64,000 nucleotides of DNA from a bacterium (GTDB lineage: Bacteria > Fidelibacterota > Fidelibacteria > Fidelibacterales > Fidelibacteraceae), in the NCBI GenBank assembly GCA_963676395.1, contig OY781066.1:1600001-1664000 (forward strand), read 5' to 3'. Each line of letters begins with the position of its first letter. Within the stretch, counting starts at the first letter, position 1. The notes beneath the pieces were generated by a model, which had not been told where the DNA came from, made no database searches, and was given only the letters and a program-made list of their open reading frames with translations. Positions 22,173-33,835 of the stretch are shown here, piece after piece. Position numbers and translations under genes: made by a program.

Positions 22173-22391
22173 TGTTCGCTCCTAAAATTTGTGTTTCATG
22201 GTTAGTTCTGGAATGAATATACACTAAAAAAAACAAAAGGCAAAAGTTTTATAATGAGTGGGTGGTAGATAGTTAGCGGCAGGTTATAAGTATGTTTTAA
22301 GATACGAAATATTATCAAATAGATTGGAGAAAATGTAGCGAAGAGACCCCATGACGGTTTGATGATCGATAATTATTTTACATGGAAATAC

Positions 22392-22443
22392 AAAAGGACT
22401 GAGCTACTGAATTGAATTCAGAATGACATCAGTCCTTTTTTAT
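22392..22443 (-). terminator. Terminator at the end of the acyl-CoA synthetase array
   Basis: AAAAGGACTGA...TCAGTCCTTTTTT hairpin. Confidence 0.7.
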
Positions 22444-22462
22444 TATATTTATCGATTATTGA

Positions 22463-24286
22463 TTAAGCTTGATCATCTACTCCGTAAAGTGCCTCAATCT
22501 GCTTTGCATAAGCTTCTTCCACTTTACGACGACGAACTTTTAAGCTCGGAGTAAGTTGTTCGTTCTCGATAGTGAAAGGATCGCCGATGAGAAGGATTTT
22601 TTTAGATTTCTCATAGCGTGCCAAAGGTTCCTGAAATGCTTCCAATTCTGATTCAAAGAGTGCATAGACTTCAGGGTTACCAAGCAATGTATAATAGTTT
22701 GAATAAACGATCGAACGTTCCTGGGCCCAGGTTTCGAGATCTTCACGAGCCGGTACGATGAGAGCGATAGGATATTTACGGCGATCACCGACGATCACAA
22801 CTTGTTCGATGTATTTTGATTCAAGCATGACATTTTCGATTGGAGCCGGAGCAATGTTTTTACCGCCTGCCGTGACAATAATGTTTTTCTTGCGATCGGT
22901 GATCTTTAAGTAACCGTCTTCGTCAATTAAACCGATATCACCGGTATGGAACCAACCGTTTTCTTCGATAGCTTCTTTTGTTTCGATAGGATTTTTATAA
23001 TAGCCCTGCATGACACAAAGTCCACGAATAAGGATCTCTCCGTCATCGGCAATCATACACTCAACATCCGGGATCGGTTGTCCCACAAAACCGAATTTAA
23101 TACACCCGGGAGGGGTCAAGTGCGTTACCGGTGAGGTTTCGGTCAGACCAAAACCTTCGAGGATATTAACACCCGCAGCGGAAAAGAAAAGTCCAATATG
23201 ATCTGCTAGTGGTGCCCCACCCGAAACGGCATAGACAAATTCACCACCCAAGGCATTTTTGATCTTGTTTAAGACTAAAGCCTTTGCAATGGGGTATGAA
23301 ATGGCATATTTACCACGAGGTCTTTTTTCGAAGACCAGATATTTTTTGGCGGTTTCCAAACCGATCTTTTTTGCCCAGTTAAAGATATTTTTCTTGAGGT
23401 TTGAGCCTTCGGCTATGCCGGCATGTATCTTTGCGTAAACTTTTTCGAAAATTCTGGGGACCGAGAACATATAATGAGGTTTAACCTCTTTCAGATTATC
23501 GGCGATTTTATCGAGACTTTCGGCATAGTAAGTACCGGCTCCACAAAAATAGGAACCGTGTGATACAATGCGTTCAAATGAGTGACTTAAAGGCAAGAAT
23601 GACAAGAAACGAACATCCGGTTTGATTTTGATCACAGACATGGCTGATTGAGCATTCGTACAGATGTTGAAATGTGAAAGCATCACACCTTTGGGATTAC
23701 CTGTGGTTCCCGATGTGTAAATAAGTGTCCAAAGATCATCTTTTTTTGCTCTTTTTGCAAATGTTTCCAGTGTTTGTTTGCCTTTTGAAAGTAGTTCTTC
23801 ACCCTTCTTGAGAAGTTCATCGTATGTCAAAGTCCAATCATCTTCCAGAGCTTCACCATCTTTGATACGTACGGCAAACTTTAAATTTGGCAGATCTTTT
23901 TTTATTTCTTTGATCTTTGCCAATTGAACATCATCAGAAACGATCACGCCGGAGGTCTCGGAATTTTCCAATATATAATGGATCTGATTTGCCGGTAGAG
24001 TAGGGTAGATGGCAACGGAAGCAACACCCATATGGGCTGTAGCCAGATCTGTCATTGTCCATTCTTTGCAGTTTTCTGATAATATTGCAAATTTATCACC
24101 ATGCTTAAAGCCCAAAGCATGAAGCCCAAAGGTGATCTTTTCAACAATATCACGACTTTCTTTAAACGTCCATGATTTCCATTTTCCGTCTTTTTTCTCT
24201 GAGAAACGAACGAGATCTCCATATTTTTCTACGGAGTAGGCGAACATCGCCGGTATGGTCTTGATGTAATCTAATTTGTATTTCAT
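22463..24286 (-). CDS. Long-chain fatty acid-CoA ligase (FAA1/FadD15-like), paralog 5
   Basis: YTSGTTGNPKG, FLPLSHSFER, EGFGLTE, GWFHTGDIG, ITDRKKN, LTPSLKVRR; ATG start. Confidence 0.93.
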   Translation of the reverse strand: MKYKLDYIKTIPAMFAYSVEKYGDLVRFSEKKDGKWKSWTFKESRDIVEKITFGLHALGFKHGDKFAILSENCKEWTMTDLATAHMGVASVAIYPTLPANQIHYILENSETSGVIVSDDVQLAKIKEIKKDLPNLKFAVRIKDGEALEDDWTLTYDELLKKGEELLSKGKQTLETFAKRAKKDDLWTLIYTSGTTGNPKGVMLSHFNICTNAQSAMSVIKIKPDVRFLSFLPLSHSFERIVSHGSYFCGAGTYYAESLDKIADNLKEVKPHYMFSVPRIFEKVYAKIHAGIAEGSNLKKNIFNWAKKIGLETAKKYLVFEKRPRGKYAISYPIAKALVLNKIKNALGGEFVYAVSGGAPLADHIGLFFSAAGVNILEGFGLTETSPVTHLTPPGCIKFGFVGQPIPDVECMIADDGEILIRGLCVMQGYYKNPIETKEAIEENGWFHTGDIGLIDEDGYLKITDRKKNIIVTAGGKNIAPAPIENVMLESKYIEQVVIVGDRRKYPIALIVPAREDLETWAQERSIVYSNYYTLLGNPEVYALFESELEAFQEPLARYEKSKKILLIGDPFTIENEQLTPSLKVRRRKVEEAYAKQIEALYGVDDQA

Positions 24287-24302: not shown

Positions 24303-26117
24303 CTAGTTCTTGTAAAGCTCTTCTACTTCGAGGTCATATTTATTGATAACTTCGTTTCGTTTGATCTTCATGCTTGCTGTCAATTCTCCCGTTTCAATCG
24401 TGAAGGGTTGCGGCGCGATGAAAAAATACTTTATTTGTTCATATCTTGCAAGCTCATCTTGATGCTTGTCGAGTTCTTCCCGGATGAGTTTATCTACATC
24501 TTTTGACATTGCCATTTCCTGATAATTATCAAAACTAATGGGAGGAACTTGTTTTTCACCCCATTTTTGAATAATGTCGTATGCAGGCACAACAATGGCC
24601 ACAAGATACCGTCGTCTGTCTCCAATCACCACAGCTTGATCAATATATTTCGAAGTGCAAATTTCTTTTTCTACACCGGTAGGAGCGATATTTTTGCCTC
24701 CTGCGGTCACGATAAGATTTTTTTTGCGATCAGTGATCTTTAGAAAGCCTTCTTCATCGATAAAGCCGATATCACCTGTATGGAACCAACCATCTTTATC
24801 AATGGCTTCTGCAGTTTCTGTTGGACTTTTATAATATCCTTGGAATACATTGGGACCTTTGATTAGGATCTCGCCGTCATCCGCTATGTGAGCCTTAATA
24901 TCGGGAATGGCTTTTCCCACACAACCGAATTTTAAATGATCCTGATGATTTGCATGGGTACATGGACTGGTTTCCGTGAGCCCATAGCCTTCTTGCACAG
25001 AAATACCTGCCATGAGGAAGAATTCACCAATCTCAGGAGACAAAGGAGCTCCACCGCTGATACATCGAATGAAATCACCACCAAAAATTGCCGAGACCTT
25101 GTTAAAAACAAATCGTTTTGCCCAAGCATATTTTACAGCCAATGGACCTATCGGCTTTTTGTTGTAGATCAGGTATTTTGTAGCGACTCTGTGACCGATG
25201 CGTTGTGCCCAATTGAAGATCTCTTGCTTTGTTGTCGGCCCGGAAAGCACTTGTTCGATCACGGTAGCGTAGATCTTTTCAAGTAAGCGTGGTACAGTGG
25301 TCATGTGATGAGGTTTTACTTCTTTTAAATTTTCCGGGACTTTTGCAATGCTTTCGGCAAAATAGATCTCGGCACCAATCCACAATGTGAACAGGCAAGT
25401 TACCCTTTCGAAAGAGTGGCTTAGAGGTAAAAATGACAGCCATCGTCTGTTTGCAGGGAAATTAACATGTGCCTGGATCTGTTGGATATTGGCACAGACA
25501 TTAAATTGTGTTAGCAAAACACCTTTGGGGTCACCCGAAGTTCCTGAGGTATAAATAATACTCCAAAGATCATCATGTTTGACCTTTTGGGCATAGTCCA
25601 GTATACTTAGCTTAGATTCTTTTTGAGCTTTTAAACCGGCAGCGCAAAGGTCCTTATAGGTAATCACCCAATCTTCATCATGTTCTACATCGTCTAATAA
25701 GATGGCATATTCCATGTGCTTGAGTTTCGCTTTTAACTGGATAATTTTGTTAAGCTGTTCGCGGTTGCTAACAACAACAACCTTACATTCTGAATGATTT
25801 AGAATGTAGTTGATCTGTTTTGGAATGGATGTCTGGTACACGGGTACCGAGATGAAGTTAAAGTAGGTACAAGCCCAATCGAACAGACACCATTCCGGTC
25901 TGTTTTCAGACAAGATCCCAACCTTGTCTTTTTCTTTAACCCCAAGTGAAAGTAGGCCGAATCCAAGAATGGAAAACATGTCATAAGCATCCCCATAGCT
26001 TATGCTTTTCCATTCCCCCTTGGATTTGTAATTGTACAGCTTCCTCTCAGGCCCTTGGGCCAACGCTTCCTGAAATATCTCGGGCAGCGTTTTTGTGTAA
26101 TCAAGTGAGTATCTGAT
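24303..26117 (-). CDS. Long-chain fatty acid-CoA ligase paralog 4 (probable ATC start, 604 aa)
   Basis: All AMP-binding motifs present; AGGAGG-AGATT-ATC AGA TAC = (I/M)RYSLDYTKTLP, aligning with MKYKLDYIKTIP. Confidence 0.9.
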   Translation of the reverse strand: MRYSLDYTKTLPEIFQEALAQGPERKLYNYKSKGEWKSISYGDAYDMFSILGFGLLSLGVKEKDKVGILSENRPEWCLFDWACTYFNFISVPVYQTSIPKQINYILNHSECKVVVVSNREQLNKIIQLKAKLKHMEYAILLDDVEHDEDWVITYKDLCAAGLKAQKESKLSILDYAQKVKHDDLWSIIYTSGTSGDPKGVLLTQFNVCANIQQIQAHVNFPANRRWLSFLPLSHSFERVTCLFTLWIGAEIYFAESIAKVPENLKEVKPHHMTTVPRLLEKIYATVIEQVLSGPTTKQEIFNWAQRIGHRVATKYLIYNKKPIGPLAVKYAWAKRFVFNKVSAIFGGDFIRCISGGAPLSPEIGEFFLMAGISVQEGYGLTETSPCTHANHQDHLKFGCVGKAIPDIKAHIADDGEILIKGPNVFQGYYKSPTETAEAIDKDGWFHTGDIGFIDEEGFLKITDRKKNLIVTAGGKNIAPTGVEKEICTSKYIDQAVVIGDRRRYLVAIVVPAYDIIQKWGEKQVPPISFDNYQEMAMSKDVDKLIREELDKHQDELARYEQIKYFFIAPQPFTIETGELTASMKIKRNEVINKYDLEVEELYKN

Positions 26118-26144
26118 AATCTCCTCCTGTGTGTGTTTGGGTTA

Positions 26145-27959
26145 TCAGTTTTTGTACAAATTTTCTATTTCTTGACTATATATTTTTATGATCTCGTTTC
26201 GTTTTACTTTCATGCTGGCGGTTAATTCACCGGTTTCAATTGCAAAGGGTTGAGGAGCAATATAGAAGTATTTTATCTGCTCATAACGAGCCAGATCTTT
26301 TTGATTTTCATCAAGCTCCATCTGGATCATCGCTTTTACGGCTTCTGATTTAACAATGTCATCATAGCTATCGATCTTTACAATTGGCGTTTGTTTATTT
26401 GCCCATTTCTGTACGATTTCTAAGGCAGGAACAATAATGGCGACCAGATACTGGCGTCTATCACCAACGACAACGGCTTGTTCAATAAATTTTGATGCGC
26501 AAATTTCTCTCTCAACACCGGCCGGAGCGATATTTTTACCGCCGGCTGTGACGATGAGATTTTTTTTGCGATCTGTAATTTTCAAGGCACCGTCTTCATC
26601 GATAAAACCAATATCTCCTGTGTGGAACCACCCGTCTTTATCAATGGCTTCTTCTGTTTCTTCAGGTGATTTATAATAGCCCAACATTAGGTTTGGACCC
26701 TTCATGAGGATCTCACCATCTTCGGCGATCTTGGTTAATAGATCCGGTACAGCTTTGCCTACAGTTCCAAATTTTAGGTGATCCATTAAGTTTGAATGGG
26801 TTACCGGACTCATTTCCGTGAGGCCATAGCCTTCTTGCACAGAAATACCTGCCATGAGAAAAAATTCACCGATCTCGGGAGCCAAAGGGGCACCACCGGA
26901 GATACAACGATTGAATTCACCACCAAATACGGCTGCAATCTTGTTAAAGACCAGGCGTTTTGCCAGGCCGTATTTAAATGAGATAGGTCCAATGGGTTTT
27001 CTACCGTAGATAAGATATTTTTGAGAAACTCTATGACCAACACGTTGTGCCCAGTTGAAAACACCCTGTTTGAGCTTGGAATCTGCTAAGATCTGCTCAA
27101 TAATTCTGGCATAGATCTTTTCTAGCAGACGAGGAACGGTGGTCATAAAATTGGGTTTGACTTCCTTAAGGTTGTCCGCTACCTTTTCAATGCTTTCGGC
27201 AAAATAGATCTCGGCTCCCACCCAAAAGCTGAAAAAGGAAGTTGTTCTTTCAAAAGAATGGCTTAAAGGCAAGAAAGACAACCAGCGCTTATTCGCTTTG
27301 AATTTAGTGTGTGCCTGAGTTTGTTGAACATTGGCGGCCATATTGAATTGCGTGGTCATTACACCTTTAGGATCGCCCGAGGTGCCTGAGGTATACACAA
27401 TGCTCCAAAGATCATCGGGATGAACCTCGGCAGCGATTTCCTGCATGCTTGTTTTAGATTCTTCTTTGGCTGCTTTTCCCCGTTTTTTCAGGTCTTTGTA
27501 GGGTATGATCCATTTTTCTTTAGATTTTAGCGAGTCAAGCGTAATGGCATATTCCAAGAATTTTAACTCAGGCTTAAGGTCAATGATCTTTTGCAGCTGT
27601 TCTTGATTGCTGACGACCACGACTTTTGCTTCGGAGTGATTTAGAATGTATTTTACTTGCTTAGGTATAGATGTTTGATAAATAGGAACCGATACAAAAT
27701 TAAAGTGGATGCATGTCCAGTCAAAAAAGCACCATTCCGGGCGATTTTCTGATAGGATGGCAACTTTATCTTGTTTTTTAACACCTAATGAAAATAGACC
27801 AAATCCCAGGTCAGGAAGCTGGTCGTATGTTTCCTGATAAGTAAAGTTTTTCCATTCACCTTCGGATTTATAATTATAAAGTTTTCGGTTTGGACCTTTG
27901 CTCAATGCATCTGCATATAAAGCAGGCATTGTTTTAATGTAATCTAGTGCGTATCTGAT
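26145..27959 (-). CDS. Long-chain fatty acid-CoA ligase paralog 3 (probable ATC start, 604 aa)
   Basis: AGGAG-AAACTT-ATC AGA TAC = (I/M)RYALDYIKTMP; motifs intact. Confidence 0.9.
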   Translation of the reverse strand: MRYALDYIKTMPALYADALSKGPNRKLYNYKSEGEWKNFTYQETYDQLPDLGFGLFSLGVKKQDKVAILSENRPEWCFFDWTCIHFNFVSVPIYQTSIPKQVKYILNHSEAKVVVVSNQEQLQKIIDLKPELKFLEYAITLDSLKSKEKWIIPYKDLKKRGKAAKEESKTSMQEIAAEVHPDDLWSIVYTSGTSGDPKGVMTTQFNMAANVQQTQAHTKFKANKRWLSFLPLSHSFERTTSFFSFWVGAEIYFAESIEKVADNLKEVKPNFMTTVPRLLEKIYARIIEQILADSKLKQGVFNWAQRVGHRVSQKYLIYGRKPIGPISFKYGLAKRLVFNKIAAVFGGEFNRCISGGAPLAPEIGEFFLMAGISVQEGYGLTEMSPVTHSNLMDHLKFGTVGKAVPDLLTKIAEDGEILMKGPNLMLGYYKSPEETEEAIDKDGWFHTGDIGFIDEDGALKITDRKKNLIVTAGGKNIAPAGVEREICASKFIEQAVVVGDRRQYLVAIIVPALEIVQKWANKQTPIVKIDSYDDIVKSEAVKAMIQMELDENQKDLARYEQIKYFYIAPQPFAIETGELTASMKVKRNEIIKIYSQEIENLYKN

Positions 27960-27983
27960 AAGTTTCTCCTGTGTATTGAATTA

Positions 27984-29798
27984 TCAGTTATTATATAATT
28001 TTTTGATCTCTTGACTATATTGATTGATGATCACGTTTCGTTTGATCTTTAAACTTGCGGTCAGCTCACCTGTTTCAATGGTGAAGGGATGTGAAGCAAT
28101 ATGGAAATACTTAACCTGTTCATAGCGGGCAAGATCCTCTTGGTGTTTATCGAGTTCTTTCTGGAGCAGTTCTTTTACTTCTTGATATACCAACAGATCT
28201 TTGTATTCTTTAATTTTTAACTCGGGTGCCTCTTTTTTTGCCCATTTTTGTATTATCTCAAGTGAAGGCACGACAATGGCAACCAGGTATTTCCGCCTGT
28301 CACCGATCACAACAGCCTGTTCAATATATTTCGAAGAACAAATTTCTTTTTCGACGCCTGCCGGAGCGATGTTTTTTCCACCTGCCGTCACGATGAGATT
28401 TTTCTTTCGATCTGTGATCTTTAAAAAACCTTCCTGATCTATAAAACCGATATCACCGGTATGGAACCAACCATCTTGATCGATAGCTTTTTCGGTTTCT
28501 TCGGGATTGTTGTAGTAGCCTTTGGTCATATTGGGACCCTTCATCAGGATCTCACCATCATCGGTGATCTTGGTTTTTACATCGGGGTAAGCATGGCCGA
28601 CATAGCCAAATTTGATGTTATTCAAGGGGACACCGTGTGAGATGGGGCTCATTTCTGTCAGACCGTATCCTTCCTGAATTTGGATTCCCGCCATAAGGAA
28701 GAACTCACCGATCTCTGGTGCTAGGGGAGCTCCTCCGCATATACAACGACTGAATTCACCTCCAAAGATATCGGCAACTTTATTAAATACCAGTTTCTTT
28801 GCCATTGAAAATTTTATTGCCAGAGGTCCCAGAGGTTTATTGTTATATCTCAGGTATTTTTGTACCACGCGTTGACCGATATGCTGTGCCCAATTGAAAA
28901 TTTCCTGTTTGGCTTTTGGTCCGGCAAGAATGTTTTCGATCACGCCTGTATACACTTTTTCAAGAAGTCTGGGGACAGTTGTCATATAATGCGGTTTTAC
29001 TTCTTTTAGGTTATCCGGGACTTTTACAATGCTTTCTGCAAAGTAAAACTCAGCCCCGACCCAAGCCGCATATAGCGAACAATGTCTTTCAAAGCTATGT
29101 GATAAAGGCAAGAATGATAACCAACGTTTATGGTGCTTGAATTTTGTAAAATTTTCTGTTTGTTGGATATTAACTGCCATATTAAACTGAGAGATCATTA
29201 CACCTTTAGGATCACCGGATGTACCTGAAGTATAAATAATACTCCATAAATCGTCCGGCTTGATCTTGGCTGTGATTTCTTTCATTTTTACTTCGGAATG
29301 CAATTCATGGGAGCGCCCCAGCTCTTTCAATTCATCATAGTTCATAACCCAGCTTTCATCATAGTTTTTATTGTCAAGCATGACAACATATTTTAGATGC
29401 TTAAGCTTGTCTTTGATACTTACGATCTTGGTGAGTTGATCTCTGGTGCTGACGACAGCAACTTTAGCTTCAGAGTGATTGAGAATAAATTGTATTTGTT
29501 TTGGAATTGAGGTTTGGTATATAGGAACGGATACAAAATTAAAGTGGGAGCAAGTCCAATCAAAAAAACACCATTCGGGTGAATTTTCTGAGAGGATGGC
29601 TACCTTATCTTGTTTTTTTACACCAAGCGCCATCAGCCCAAAACCTAAGGAAGACAGCACATTCCAGAGATCCATATTGCTATGGCTTCTCCACTCACCG
29701 TCTTTTTTATAAAAATAAAGTTTACGATGTGCGTTTTTACTCAATGCATCAGCAAGAATACCGGGCATTGTTTTTATATAATCAATCGAATATCTGAT
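27984..29798 (-). CDS. Long-chain fatty acid-CoA ligase paralog 2 (probable ATC start, 604 aa)
   Basis: AGGAG-CTTAGA-ATC AGA TAT = (I/M)RYSIDYIKTMP; motifs intact. Confidence 0.9.
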   Translation of the reverse strand: MRYSIDYIKTMPGILADALSKNAHRKLYFYKKDGEWRSHSNMDLWNVLSSLGFGLMALGVKKQDKVAILSENSPEWCFFDWTCSHFNFVSVPIYQTSIPKQIQFILNHSEAKVAVVSTRDQLTKIVSIKDKLKHLKYVVMLDNKNYDESWVMNYDELKELGRSHELHSEVKMKEITAKIKPDDLWSIIYTSGTSGDPKGVMISQFNMAVNIQQTENFTKFKHHKRWLSFLPLSHSFERHCSLYAAWVGAEFYFAESIVKVPDNLKEVKPHYMTTVPRLLEKVYTGVIENILAGPKAKQEIFNWAQHIGQRVVQKYLRYNNKPLGPLAIKFSMAKKLVFNKVADIFGGEFSRCICGGAPLAPEIGEFFLMAGIQIQEGYGLTEMSPISHGVPLNNIKFGYVGHAYPDVKTKITDDGEILMKGPNMTKGYYNNPEETEKAIDQDGWFHTGDIGFIDQEGFLKITDRKKNLIVTAGGKNIAPAGVEKEICSSKYIEQAVVIGDRRKYLVAIVVPSLEIIQKWAKKEAPELKIKEYKDLLVYQEVKELLQKELDKHQEDLARYEQVKYFHIASHPFTIETGELTASLKIKRNVIINQYSQEIKKLYNN

Positions 29799-29822: not shown

Positions 29823-31640
29823 TCATTTTTCGTACATTTTGTCAATATCGTCTTTGTATTTTTCAAGAACGACATTGCGTTTTAGCTTTAAGCTTGCAGT
29901 GAGTTCTCCACCTTCGATTGTGAATGGTTGAGGGGCGATAAAGAAGTATTTGATCTGTTCGTAACGAGCGAGATCCTGCTGATGAGCGTCAAGTTCATCT
30001 TTAAGAAGATTTTTAACAATAACTGAATTTGCAACATCTTCATAGTTCTTGAATTCGATAGGTGGATCCTGCATTTTACCCCATTTAATAAACATATCAA
30101 CGGCAGGAACGATAATTGTAGTAAGGTACTTGCGTCTGTCACCCAGAACAAGAGCCGATTCAACGAATTTAGAAGCGGAAATTTCTCTTTCAACCGCTGC
30201 CGGAGCGATATTTTTACCACCGGCGGTTACGATAAGGTTTTTCTTTCTGTCGGTGATCTTTAAATAACCATCTTCATCAACAAAGCCGATATCACCGGTA
30301 TGGAACCAACCATCTTGATCGATAGCTTCGGCAGTTTCTTCGGGATTCTTATAATATTTTTCCATACGATTCGGGCCTTTGAGCAGAATTTCACCATCTT
30401 CGGCGATACGTGTTTCAACATCGGGAAGTGCTGGGCCGACCGTACCCCATTTTGTTTCAAGATGAGGTGGGTTTACGTGAGTGACGGGTGACATTTCCGT
30501 TAAGCCGTAGCCCTCAATAATATCAATACCGGCAGCTGTGAAGAATTCACCGACTTCTGCAGATAAGGGAGCACCGCCGCTGACGCATTGGATGAATTCT
30601 CCACCAAAAACACCTGCGATTTTTTTAAATACCAGTGCTTTTGAAATTGAATAGCGAAGAGCGACCAAACCTTTTGGCTTTAGGTTTTTTGAAAGGAATT
30701 TTGATACGACCTCATGAGCGGTACGTTGCGCTTGAGCAAAAATGTTTTGTTTAATGTGAGAGCCTAACGCAATTTGTTCTTGTACGCCGGCATATACTTT
30801 TTCAAGCAGGCGCGGTACGGTGGTCATGTATTGAGGTTTTACCTCTTTTAAATTCTCGGCTACTTTGGCAATACTTTCAGCAAAAAATATTTCGCCACCA
30901 ATCCATGTTGTAAATAAAGATGTTACGCGTTCAAAAGAATGCGACAAAGGTAAGAAGGATAGCCAGCGTTTATTGGGTTTAAATCCAATACCGCCTTGTG
31001 ATTGCTGAACATTTGCTGCCATATTGAACTGTGAAATCATAACACCCTTCGGGTCGCCAGAAGTACCTGAAGTATAAATGATAGAAAATAAATCTTCGGG
31101 TTTGATTTCTTTTATGATTTTTGTAAGAGTGGTCTTTGATGAAGCTTTCTTTTCTTCGCCTTTGGCGAGAAGTTCATCCCAGGTGATGATCCAATCTTCT
31201 TTGAGATCAGTTTTGTCTAACATGACCATGTATTTAAGGTCTTTAAGATTATCTTTGATCTCAATCACTTTTTCAGCTTGAGCTTTGCTGGAAGCGATCA
31301 CAACCTTTGATTCCGAGTGATTTAAGATATAATCAACCTGTTTGGGGATCGAGGTCATGTAAACAGGTACCGAAACAAAACCGAAGTGTGAACATGTCCA
31401 GTCGGTAATGTTCCATTCAGGTCGGTTTTCGGAGAGTATCGCGACTTTATCGCCTTTTTTCAATCCAAGTGCATGCAAACCGAAACCGGCTTTTTCTAGC
31501 GTGTTGTAAACGTCTTGGTAAGTGTAACTGATCCATGTATCATCCTTCTTGACATTAAGAAGTTTGCGATCTGTGCCACCCGTCATAGCGTCGGCAAAGA
31601 TAGCAGGCATGGTTTGGATATAATCCATTTGATAGTTCAT
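29823..31640 (-). CDS. Long-chain fatty acid-CoA ligase paralog 1
   Basis: AGGAGG-CACAC-ATG, MNYQMDYIQTMP; YTSGTSGDPKG, EGYGLTE, GWFHTGDIG. Confidence 0.93.
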   Translation of the reverse strand: MNYQMDYIQTMPAIFADAMTGGTDRKLLNVKKDDTWISYTYQDVYNTLEKAGFGLHALGLKKGDKVAILSENRPEWNITDWTCSHFGFVSVPVYMTSIPKQVDYILNHSESKVVIASSKAQAEKVIEIKDNLKDLKYMVMLDKTDLKEDWIITWDELLAKGEEKKASSKTTLTKIIKEIKPEDLFSIIYTSGTSGDPKGVMISQFNMAANVQQSQGGIGFKPNKRWLSFLPLSHSFERVTSLFTTWIGGEIFFAESIAKVAENLKEVKPQYMTTVPRLLEKVYAGVQEQIALGSHIKQNIFAQAQRTAHEVVSKFLSKNLKPKGLVALRYSISKALVFKKIAGVFGGEFIQCVSGGAPLSAEVGEFFTAAGIDIIEGYGLTEMSPVTHVNPPHLETKWGTVGPALPDVETRIAEDGEILLKGPNRMEKYYKNPEETAEAIDQDGWFHTGDIGFVDEDGYLKITDRKKNLIVTAGGKNIAPAAVEREISASKFVESALVLGDRRKYLTTIIVPAVDMFIKWGKMQDPPIEFKNYEDVANSVIVKNLLKDELDAHQQDLARYEQIKYFFIAPQPFTIEGGELTASLKLKRNVVLEKYKDDIDKMYEK

Positions 31641-32087: not shown

Positions 32088-32326
32088 CAGAAGAAAAAGC
32101 TTGAGGGGGAGCGCTGAGAGGGGGAGAAAGGGGCCTTGTCCCGCGAACCAAACCCCACACTGCATCGTCATCCTGAAACGATGGCCGGAGGACATCGGGG
32201 TTCAGGGTCTCTGCGAGCATTCGATTCTTCGTCATATTCAACTACTACAATATTTCCTACATATGAAGATATTTCTTTTATAAGTTGATGGGGCTTCGTA
32301 TGTTTGACAAACTAAGGGAGTTGATC

Positions 32327-33835
32327 ATGTATACGCGTAGAATCGCCATTATCACGACTATTGTATTACTCTTTATTACACATGCCTTTGCATCAATTCT
32401 TATCGAGAAGGGCAGTTACGGGGAAATATTCCCTGCCGAAAATGGGAACATGCATATTTTTATTAGAAATGATAATTCTTCCTACATTTTCTATTCTGGA
32501 GGTAGAGTTGTTAAAGAAATACCCCTCGGAGTGAGTGATAGTACAATTATATTTGAAACGGCAAGTTCTGATGGAGTCGGTGGTGTTTATGTACTGTATA
32601 ACAACACTGCAAATAAAACAATTTATGCTCAACGTTATAATTCTAGTGGAGAAGCGCTTTGGGATGCGCCGGGAAGCATTGTTTATACTTATCATTTTCC
32701 AAGAGTCTCCTCATTTTCAGTATTGGGACCGGACAGTAGCTTTGTTGTGGTTTATGATGATTATTTTCCAATTTATGTTACACCTGAAGCATATCTCTGG
32801 GCTATTTCACTTGATGGTGATGTCGTTCCTCACCCTGGTGGTAGATTTGAACACAGCTGGAATTTTGAGATGCATAGTGATCCATTTGAAGTTTATGTTA
32901 AACAAGCATTAGCTTCCAATATAGTCCCAATCTATGATTTTGAATATGATCCATGGAATCCTGATACTTCAAAATTAGGTGTTTTGGAGTTTGATTGTGA
33001 TGGCAATGGTTATTTATATGCAATGCGAATGCCATTAGAATCACATTTAAAAAGAGAGCTCCAACGATATGATAAACAATCAAACCCCTTGTGGGAAAAC
33101 CCTATTGTGTATTATGTGGAGGAATTATATAAAGCTTCTTCAGATCCTGATTATGAACGTCCTGGGATTATTGCCAATAATGATGGAAGTGTTATAATTT
33201 ATCCAACAAAATATTCAGAAGGTTGGAATTTTACTCGTATTGATTCATCAAAAGAATACGTATATAGTGATTTAAATCTAATTGGAGAGAGTGATCGAGT
33301 TAACACAGCGTTATCTTGTTCAGATGGAACGAATTTATTCTTAATAGAAGAATGGGATACCGGTAATCTGTCTTTAATAAAAGTTTCAATTGATGGAAAC
33401 ATTGAATTCTCTACTATACTTAGAAATGGATTTTGTAGATATGCAAGCATTATTGAGAATAAAGACAGTACTTTTTCAACAATAATGATAACTAGTACTG
33501 ATTCGATATTTGTTGACAAAATTACCCATACCGGAGAGATTCTAGTAGATATAGATGAAATTGACAATCCAACTCAATTCACCCTCTCCCAAAACTATCC
33601 CAACCCCTTCAACCCTACCACAATAATCAGCTATGATCTACCCGAATCTCAAAACATTACCCTTGAGATCTACGACATAAAAGGCCGTTTAGTTGAAACG
33701 CTATTCAGCGGATACAAAGAGGCCGGGCATTGGGACGTCACCTGGGATGCGAGTGATCAAAGTTCAGGTGTATACATCTATCGATTACAGTATGGCGACA
33801 AACACATGTCAAAGAAAATGTTGTTGATCAAGTAA
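32327..33835 (+). CDS. Secreted beta-rich protein with C-terminal T9SS-type-A-like sorting domain
   Basis: SD AGGGAG, signal peptide; YAQRYNSSGEALW-type repeats; LSQNYPNPFNP...SGVYIYRL..KKMLLIK. Confidence 0.85.
   Translation: MYTRRIAIITTIVLLFITHAFASILIEKGSYGEIFPAENGNMHIFIRNDNSSYIFYSGGRVVKEIPLGVSDSTIIFETASSDGVGGVYVLYNNTANKTIYAQRYNSSGEALWDAPGSIVYTYHFPRVSSFSVLGPDSSFVVVYDDYFPIYVTPEAYLWAISLDGDVVPHPGGRFEHSWNFEMHSDPFEVYVKQALASNIVPIYDFEYDPWNPDTSKLGVLEFDCDGNGYLYAMRMPLESHLKRELQRYDKQSNPLWENPIVYYVEELYKASSDPDYERPGIIANNDGSVIIYPTKYSEGWNFTRIDSSKEYVYSDLNLIGESDRVNTALSCSDGTNLFLIEEWDTGNLSLIKVSIDGNIEFSTILRNGFCRYASIIENKDSTFSTIMITSTDSIFVDKITHTGEILVDIDEIDNPTQFTLSQNYPNPFNPTTIISYDLPESQNITLEIYDIKGRLVETLFSGYKEAGHWDVTWDASDQSSGVYIYRLQYGDKHMSKKMLLIK

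Follow-up and report, generated by a model that had tools for sequence, protein, structure and literature searches.

A conserved ATC at the start position of the middle genes in a tandem acyl-CoA synthetase array of Fidelibacteraceae: a probable case of weak AUC initiation

Can a near-cognate codon serve as the start of metabolic genes and be kept as such while these genes are duplicated and diverge? The question is raised by a tandem array of five acyl-CoA synthetase paralogs, p1 to p5, on the reverse strand of a 64,000-nucleotide (nt) stretch of a bacterial genome from the family Fidelibacteraceae, called the window below (contig OY781066.1; G000:C1:1600001-1664000 in our numbering, where G000 is the genome, a single contig of 2.34 Mb with 38% G+C). 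The first and the last genes of the array begin with ATG, and at the codon aligned with it the three middle genes, p2, p3 and p4, carry ATC (Table 1). A preliminary description of the window had reported these codons, a Shine-Dalgarno (SD) sequence 5–6 nt upstream of each ATC, and a length of 604 amino acids (aa) for each middle protein; all of these observations are reproduced here. We consider it likely that p2–p4, together with 12 orthologous genes from 10 other species, start at AUC, and that this weak, locus-specific start is held by purifying selection.

In p2–p4, no ATG, GTG, or TTG lies between the ATC and the in-frame stop 7–8 codons upstream, and the first canonical codons are found 10 (p2), 10 (p3), and 18 (p4) codons downstream of it. 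The 3' end of the 16S rRNA (GGATCACCTCCTTTCT) carries CCUCC, able to pair with the SD. Of the public runs, a single one, X1, was listed as containing the locus, and no RNA run was listed. Logan contigs from X1 span all three ATC codons with zero letter differences; as this run is possibly the source sample, the check is independent of the assembler and not of the data. Taken with the presence of ATC in relatives, it answers the concern about a sequencing error that had been raised at the outset.

Forty relatives were searched, and 72 N-termini were recovered from 29 genomes, 63 of them in 22 genomes of the same genus and nine in outgroups. All 72 array proteins begin at the same aligned codon (motif xxYxLxYxxTxP). 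This codon is ATG in all nine outgroup genes and in all 43 other array genes of the genus; among the 20 middle-type genes of the genus it is ATC in 15, TTG in three (G005, G008, and G018), GTG in one (G014), and ATG in one (G002_1804, a very recent duplicate), the assignment of G005_3022, G018_3420, G006_2727, and G003a_2554 to the middle type being based on position and the N-terminal motif only. Thus every middle-type gene of the genus except one has a non-ATG start. ATC is carried by 11 of the 22 genus genomes (three genes in G000, two each in G011 and G019, and one each in G002, G003, G004, G006, G007, G013, G015, and G017), and beyond G000 it occupies the aligned position in 12 orthologous genes from 10 genomes. 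Since the aligned codon is only ever ATC, TTG, GTG, or ATG, it is a start codon by position. In codons 2–11 the residues are fixed and the third bases shift (Y3 TAT/TAC, Y7, K9 AAA/AAG, and T10 with all four ACN). An alignment of orthologous loci had been proposed in the preliminary description; in ours, ATC is conserved, and codons 2–11 are under protein-level constraint. The middle genes therefore display the three sequence features of SD-led AUH (H is A, C, or U) starts, namely the lack of a canonical start at the position, a properly spaced SD, and orthologous codons of start type only, and ATC is very probably the real start codon of p2–p4.

Several relatives have peculiar middle genes. 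G002 (L037:1804 and L037:3643) has two near-identical tandem copies with branch lengths of 0.011 and 0.001 in the tree described below; the upstream copy has ATG AAC behind CAGGAG, and the downstream one has ATC AGC with the SD decayed to CAGGAA. This pair may represent a reversion of the start codon soon after duplication. In G005 (TTG) and G006 (ATC), the open frame of the middle gene extends over only 312 and 427 aa, respectively, and continues in another frame, and G021 contributes no middle-gene start, its gene being in pieces with internal TGA codons; these broken genes of G005, G006, and G021 are either assembly indels or decaying genes. G011 has two arrays (contigs C22 and C91). The last gene of one of them is identical in protein sequence to that of G006, and the middle-gene junction and 5' end of the same array are identical to G006 letter by letter; this metagenome-assembled genome (about 5% contamination) may mix two strains, and hence its two ATC genes should not both be counted as independent of G006.

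How old is the ATC? In a quick maximum-likelihood tree (IQ-TREE), which covers sequences of at least 560 residues and so excludes the four genes classed by position and motif as well as other contig-end or frameshifted pieces, the array genes fall into three clades, one of first genes, one of last genes (SH-aLRT 100), and one of middle genes (SH-aLRT 100) that comprises 13 ATC genes and one ATG gene. A pair of TTG and GTG genes (SH-aLRT 100) that occupies the same array position as the middle genes is separate in the tree. Within the middle clade, p4 groups with G019_4845 (SH-aLRT 98), p2 with G019_3006 (99), and the pair with p2 has p3 as its sister (90); both G019 genes start with ATC, and ATC is also found in single-copy orthologs of nine other genomes. 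These pairings and the single-copy orthologs place ATC before the duplications, which, along with the single ATC clade, bears out the earlier suggestion that the codon is older than the array's expansion. The ratio of nonsynonymous to synonymous divergence (dN/dS) is 0.06–0.09 where computable, and dS is saturated in six of eight pairs; the middle genes are, to judge by these ratios, functional and under strong purifying selection. ATC shows no change across the 13 full-length genes compared, so the codon has indeed been retained, as had been proposed, while the paralogs diverged to saturation at synonymous sites. In the same alignment, of 253 degenerate columns with an invariant amino acid only 11 keep a single codon, and of 18 internal columns with invariant Ile only one does so. 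This comparison is suggestive of selection for C at the third base specifically, and is not proof of it.

The mechanism that we favor is as follows. The strong SD 5–6 nt upstream would put AUC in the P site, where the ordinary initiator tRNA (anticodon CAU) would read it with a third-position mismatch, giving a protein of 604 aa that begins with fMet/Met. Initiation factor 3 (IF3) would discriminate against AUC, so that, from one and the same mRNA, the middle isozymes would be made at a fraction of the rate of the two outer, ATG-led genes. The weak start would have arisen once, in a single-copy middle gene, and would have been passed on when this gene was later duplicated twice in tandem. It is by analogy that initiation with fMet-tRNA, a low output, and sensitivity to IF3 are ascribed to p2–p4. 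In E. coli, AUC is reported to initiate at 1%–2% (0.02%–3%) of the AUG level, with an N-terminal Met detected by mass spectrometry, and to be one to two orders of magnitude weaker in reporters (10.1101/063800).

Several considerations weigh against this interpretation. In its invariance, the third base reaches only the top ~5% of an empirical null, and the sequences compared are kin, so that the pattern amounts to about two clades, one with ATC and one with TTG/GTG. The N-terminus at AUC is deduced from comparative sequence, and p2–p4 are presumed to be expressed. The output may not be low, as the junctions could be coupled to the upstream gene. Finally, an ATT is located one codon upstream of the ATC in most orthologs; one G019 gene lacks it, as do p2 and p3, and it would sit only 2–3 nt from the SD.

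The coupling of the middle genes to their upstream neighbors is the most serious alternative, although we regard it as unlikely. In this explanation AUC is again the start, and most of the ribosomes using it would come straight from translating the upstream paralog: the stops of that paralog (UGAUAA or UAAUAG, plus CCC) would pair with the segment from the SD to the start (GGAG...UUAUCAG or CUAUUA), and the terminating ribosome would open the site. The output would then follow that of the upstream gene, with no need for it to be very low, and pairing with the G of UGA would be part of the reason why the C of AUC is held. The junctions do contain the required repeats. At p2/p3 and p3/p4, CTGATAA (the upstream stop and a second stop) is the exact 7-nt reverse complement of TTATCAG, which includes the ATC, and p1/p2 has a bulged form of the same repeat; at p2/p3 the SD sits inside the hairpin loop. 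Species with TAATAG stops carry CTATTA before the ATC, and CCC after the stops is able to pair with GG of the SD. In minimum free energy folds of positions -40 to +9, at least one base of the start codon is paired to the stop region in 12 of 14 ATC junctions, and all three bases in six. Over 15 junctions, two pairing registers have 86.5%–86.7% of cells paired, versus 23%–38% when slid by one or two columns, and the change between TAG/CTA and TAA/TTA yields seven GC and three AU cells at one pair.

However, the covariation is within that of shuffled alignments (for the two registers, which were named by hand, the observed score is attained in 106 of 500 shuffles and in 133 of 500), and RNAalifold finds no consensus structure in the 15 junction sequences. 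Stability is weak in these stems, which are short and rich in A/U; the -40 to +9 folds have energies of -1.0 to -8.2 kcal/mol and modest z-scores of +0.46 to -2.79 against mononucleotide shuffles. Folding of positions -35 to +35 does not distinguish the ATC sites, whose energies (-5.4 to -8.0 kcal/mol) lie inside the genome background of -7.1 +/- 3.7. Both arms are constrained anyway, one by the stops and the other by the SD and start, so that the pairing may be a by-product, and in species of the TAATAG type the conservation of AUC extends to its U and C, which are unpaired there. Similar small hairpins precede the ATG-led last gene, a point in favor of coupling. Plain termination-reinitiation is described for overlapping stops and starts or distances of about 10 nt or less, and the native E. 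coli and Haloferax gene pairs tested are reported to lose coupling by ~20 nt (PMC10666635); here the distance from stop to ATC is 24 nt at p1/p2, 24 nt at p2/p3, and 27 nt at p3/p4, beyond that range, which makes this form of coupling unlikely. In sum, the stop/start repeat gives hints of translational coupling.

Initiation farther downstream, at the ATG of codon 11 in p2 and p3 and the TTG of codon 19 in p4, with the ten upstream codons being an untranslated remnant of duplication, seems to us very improbable. Canonical codons are present at these places, and the public protein collection (NCBI, ENA) holds p2 and p3 in exactly this form of 594 aa. Yet the downstream ATGs (29768 in p2 and 27929 in p3) are preceded by ...AAAACA and have no SD, and codon 11 of p4 is CTG, both in agreement with what had been noted before; the first canonical start of p4, TTG at 26063, also lacks an SD and would drop 18 conserved residues. 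Codons 2–10 vary synonymously like translated sequence, though synonymous sites are saturated across the clade, and all ATG-led paralogs and outgroup genes begin at the aligned codon. Minor support for the N-terminus as part of the folded protein comes from the AlphaFold2 model of p3, where residues 1–10 have a mean predicted local distance difference test (pLDDT) score of 90.

The preliminary description had also offered, as an alternative to selection at the locus, a lineage with relaxed start-codon choice. Such relaxation would come from a changed IF3 or initiator tRNA, or from an additional initiator that reads AUC, and many genes would then start at AUH. In its favor, one 2.3-Mb genome contains four clear cases of an SD-led ATC start, three in the array and one in infC, the gene of IF3 (G000:C1:1894065, forward strand, with ATC 5 nt after AAGGAG). 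Genome-wide start usage tells otherwise, and this idea was not upheld; we consider it extremely doubtful. In the first 60 codons of 1845 stop-to-stop open reading frames (ORFs) of at least 150 codons, a strong SD precedes 7.3% of ATG positions (a 16-fold enrichment), 1.7% of GTG, and 0.8% of TTG, with a background of 0.45%; ATC is not among the 20 most SD-enriched codons, and none of ATC, ATT, and ATA is enriched behind strong SDs. In a stricter scan upstream of the first canonical codon, strong SDs are found at six of 304 ATCs (2.0%) versus 1.7%–1.9% for AAA/AAC, and three of the six are the array genes. Both scans detect SD-led genes only: some 16%–18% of first ATGs have a strong SD, and near-cognate starts of SD-less genes are invisible to them. 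Further SD-led ATCs at G000:C1:1325998 (+), 877116 (-), and 885746 (+), 4–13 codons before a canonical start, are most likely due to chance. As to the SDs of this genome, AGGAGG is present at 16 of 1034 first ATGs of long ORFs, and only ~16%–18% have a 5-mer SD; in the array, by contrast, each of the five genes has AGGAG(G), as do their relatives, within a conserved CA-rich context (ACACAGGAG).

The initiation machinery appears to be ordinary. In E. coli, infC and pcnB start at AUU, and the infC start is the classical autoregulatory arrangement. The aligned infC codon in the genus is ATC in 10 and ATT in eight of the 18 readable genomes, 5–7 nt after AAGGAG, and infC of more distant relatives has ATA, ATT, or ATC candidates behind an SD. 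Since this arrangement, kept in 18 of 18 genomes, would make no sense unless IF3 discriminates, IF3 discrimination is probably intact in the genus. Among the tRNA genes predicted by ARAGORN are three for tRNA(CAU), of which one resembles an initiator (5' C and GGG/CCC in the anticodon stem); tRNA-Ile(GAU) is encoded once and is ordinary. The IF3 of the genome can be aligned from end to end with a 180-aa IF3 chain and retains the residues aligned to Y75, R99, D106, K110, R112, R131, R133, and E134, which we take to be the fidelity positions and to which we give little weight. The use of ATC is therefore best regarded, with the same confidence as the reading that we favor as a whole, as a property of the array locus and not of the organism's translation apparatus. 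The weakest alternative, a sequencing error at an original ATG or a polyprotein made by stop read-through, has in its favor that all three G000 junctions are in frame with the upstream gene, and its probability is practically negligible, as ATC occurs in 15 genes from 11 genomes and in the separate assembly of run X1, two consecutive in-frame stops are present at the junctions, and the junctions of G017 and G002 are off frame by one base (TAAATAG).

A more far-reaching proposal, to which we attach a low probability, is that the AUC-led isozymes and the AUC-led infC form a small translational regulon titrated by IF3, in which the stop/start hairpin adds coupling to the upstream gene, and the codon is held at AUC, not AUU, AUA, or AUG, by the IF3 response together with the pairing to UGA. 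The co-occurrence of ATC in infC and in the middle genes tracks phylogeny and is not independent evidence. If the proposal were true, a decrease in the ratio of IF3 to ribosomes would raise the three weakly started synthetases relative to the ATG-led first and last genes, and the isozyme mix and the range of activated fatty acids would shift without a transcriptional regulator.

By their domain architecture, the five proteins are AMP-forming acyl-CoA synthetases of the ANL superfamily: all have PF00501 (AMP-binding; E-values 1e-66 to 1e-74) and PF23562 (AMP-binding C-terminal; 1e-9 to 1e-11). Their pairwise identity is 46%–70%, and the AlphaFold2 model of p3 has a mean pLDDT of 87.7. The comparison with NCBIfam yielded no match above a curated cut-off; the best match, the FadD11-type fatty acid–CoA ligase (NF038343), was rejected, as p1, p3, and p5 score 331–357 bits against a cut-off of 950, and hence the array enzymes are named here only as acyl-CoA synthetases, with the substrate left unspecified. 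The ATG of p5 lies 16 nt after the p4 stop (TAG). The flanks of the array are unrelated to it: upstream there is a divergent gene (32285-33835, forward strand) for a 516-aa protein with the C-terminal sorting domain of the type IX secretion system (PF18962), and downstream an HhH-GPD glycosylase and a peptidase. With these flanks and the terminator-like repeat past p5, which was missed by a terminator pattern scan since its loop exceeds the rule of the scan, p1–p5 look like one operon.

Table 1. Genes of the acyl-CoA synthetase array and associated elements (positions within the window)
Feature	Position	Strand	Details
p1, first acyl-CoA synthetase paralog of the array	31640..29823	-	ATG, 605 aa, MNYQMDYIQTMP; AGGAGG 31651-31646, spacer 5 nt
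p1 stop (TGATAA)	29825-29820	-	p2 ATC 24 nt after
p2, middle paralog	29798..27984	-	ATC at 29798-29796, 604 aa, IRYSIDYIKTMP; AGGAG 29809-29805, spacer 6 nt
p2/p3 junction inverted repeat, hypothetical coupling hairpin	27955..27987	-	CTGATAA 27987-27981 versus TTATCAG 27961-27955 (with ATC)
p3, middle paralog	27959..26145	-	ATC at 27959-27957, 604 aa, IRYALDYIKTMP; AGGAG 27970-27966, spacer 6 nt
p3/p4 junction inverted repeat, hypothetical coupling hairpin	26113..26148	-	CTGATAA 26148-26142 versus TTATCAG 26119-26113 (with ATC)
p4, middle paralog	26117..24303	-	ATC at 26117-26115, 604 aa, IRYSLDYTKTLP; AGGAGG 26128-26123, spacer 5 nt
p5, last paralog of the array	24286..22463	-	ATG, 607 aa, MKYKLDYIKTIP
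Terminator-like inverted repeat past p5	22389..22437	-	GGACTGA...TCAGTCC, then TTTTG; probable operon end

The array is of interest both for annotation and for the study of initiation. It had been predicted that gene callers would truncate the middle genes, and this is the case for p2 and p3 in their public 594-aa forms; p4 would have 586 aa by the ORF rule, and the same N-terminal loss is to be expected for the 12 orthologs. Documented bacterial AUC starts are few, and a weak start codon is a known means of holding protein output low. Here one weak start has been copied three times in one operon, with ATG-led paralogs on either side, and held through saturating synonymous divergence, which is a natural experiment. 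The array could serve as a convenient system for measuring the yield of AUC behind a strong SD outside model organisms, and for finding out whether the proportions of metabolic isozymes are set by the level of IF3.

Among the titles and abstracts listed on AUC or ATC as a start or initiation codon, mostly concerned with organelle genomes, none described a natural AUC start of a bacterial chromosomal gene, and in the papers listed on Marinimicrobia/Fidelibacterota and acyl-CoA synthetases we found nothing on this locus. Conserved weak starts of the same general type are described elsewhere. The ATA start of infC in Flavobacterium johnsoniae was demonstrated by mutagenesis (PMC7797042), and in S. 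aureus conserved AUU/AUA starts behind extended SDs are reported to yield ~10%–30% of AUG (PMC13009471). Like infC and pcnB of E. coli, the AUA-started infC of F. johnsoniae, and infC of the genus itself, the middle genes have an AUH codon behind an SD that is conserved in relatives. Reading by the initiator tRNA and limitation by IF3, as in the infC/pcnB class, would presumably extend to them. Unlike infC and pcnB, they encode metabolic enzymes and not a translation factor or a poly(A) polymerase, and therefore the autoregulatory logic of infC does not apply; in contrast to the genus infC, which alternates between ATC and ATT, their near-cognate codon is AUC throughout.

The closest parallels are cvfC1, ccpN, and citZ of S. 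aureus, which, as reported, also combine a weak start with a strong SD, are conserved across species, and were missed by annotation (PMC13009471). In these genes the combination attenuates translation, and citZ, like the array genes, encodes a metabolic enzyme. Whereas the S. aureus starts were identified by Ribo-RET and reporters, those of the array are known from comparative sequence only; on the other hand, the weak start of the array, unlike those of S. aureus, was multiplied by tandem duplication and is located inside an operon between ATG-led paralogs. A similar principle is seen in the GTG start of E. coli lacI, where selection on the expression level is described as holding a weaker start codon (PMC11445065), but GTG is canonical, at 10%–100% of AUG, and AUC is far weaker in E. 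coli reporters. With coupled adjacent genes the array shares an operon-internal position, short spacers, and a possible pairing of stop and start; it differs from the termination-reinitiation pairs of PMC10666635 in its 24–27-nt spacers with an SD of their own, the hairpin being hypothetical. Overall, judged by these sequence features, the ATC starts of the array are a clean new example within the known infC, pcnB, ccpN, and cvfC1 class of conserved weak starts, and are distinguished in it by the AUC codon, by tandem multiplication between ATG-led outer genes, and by the use of AUC in infC of the same genomes.

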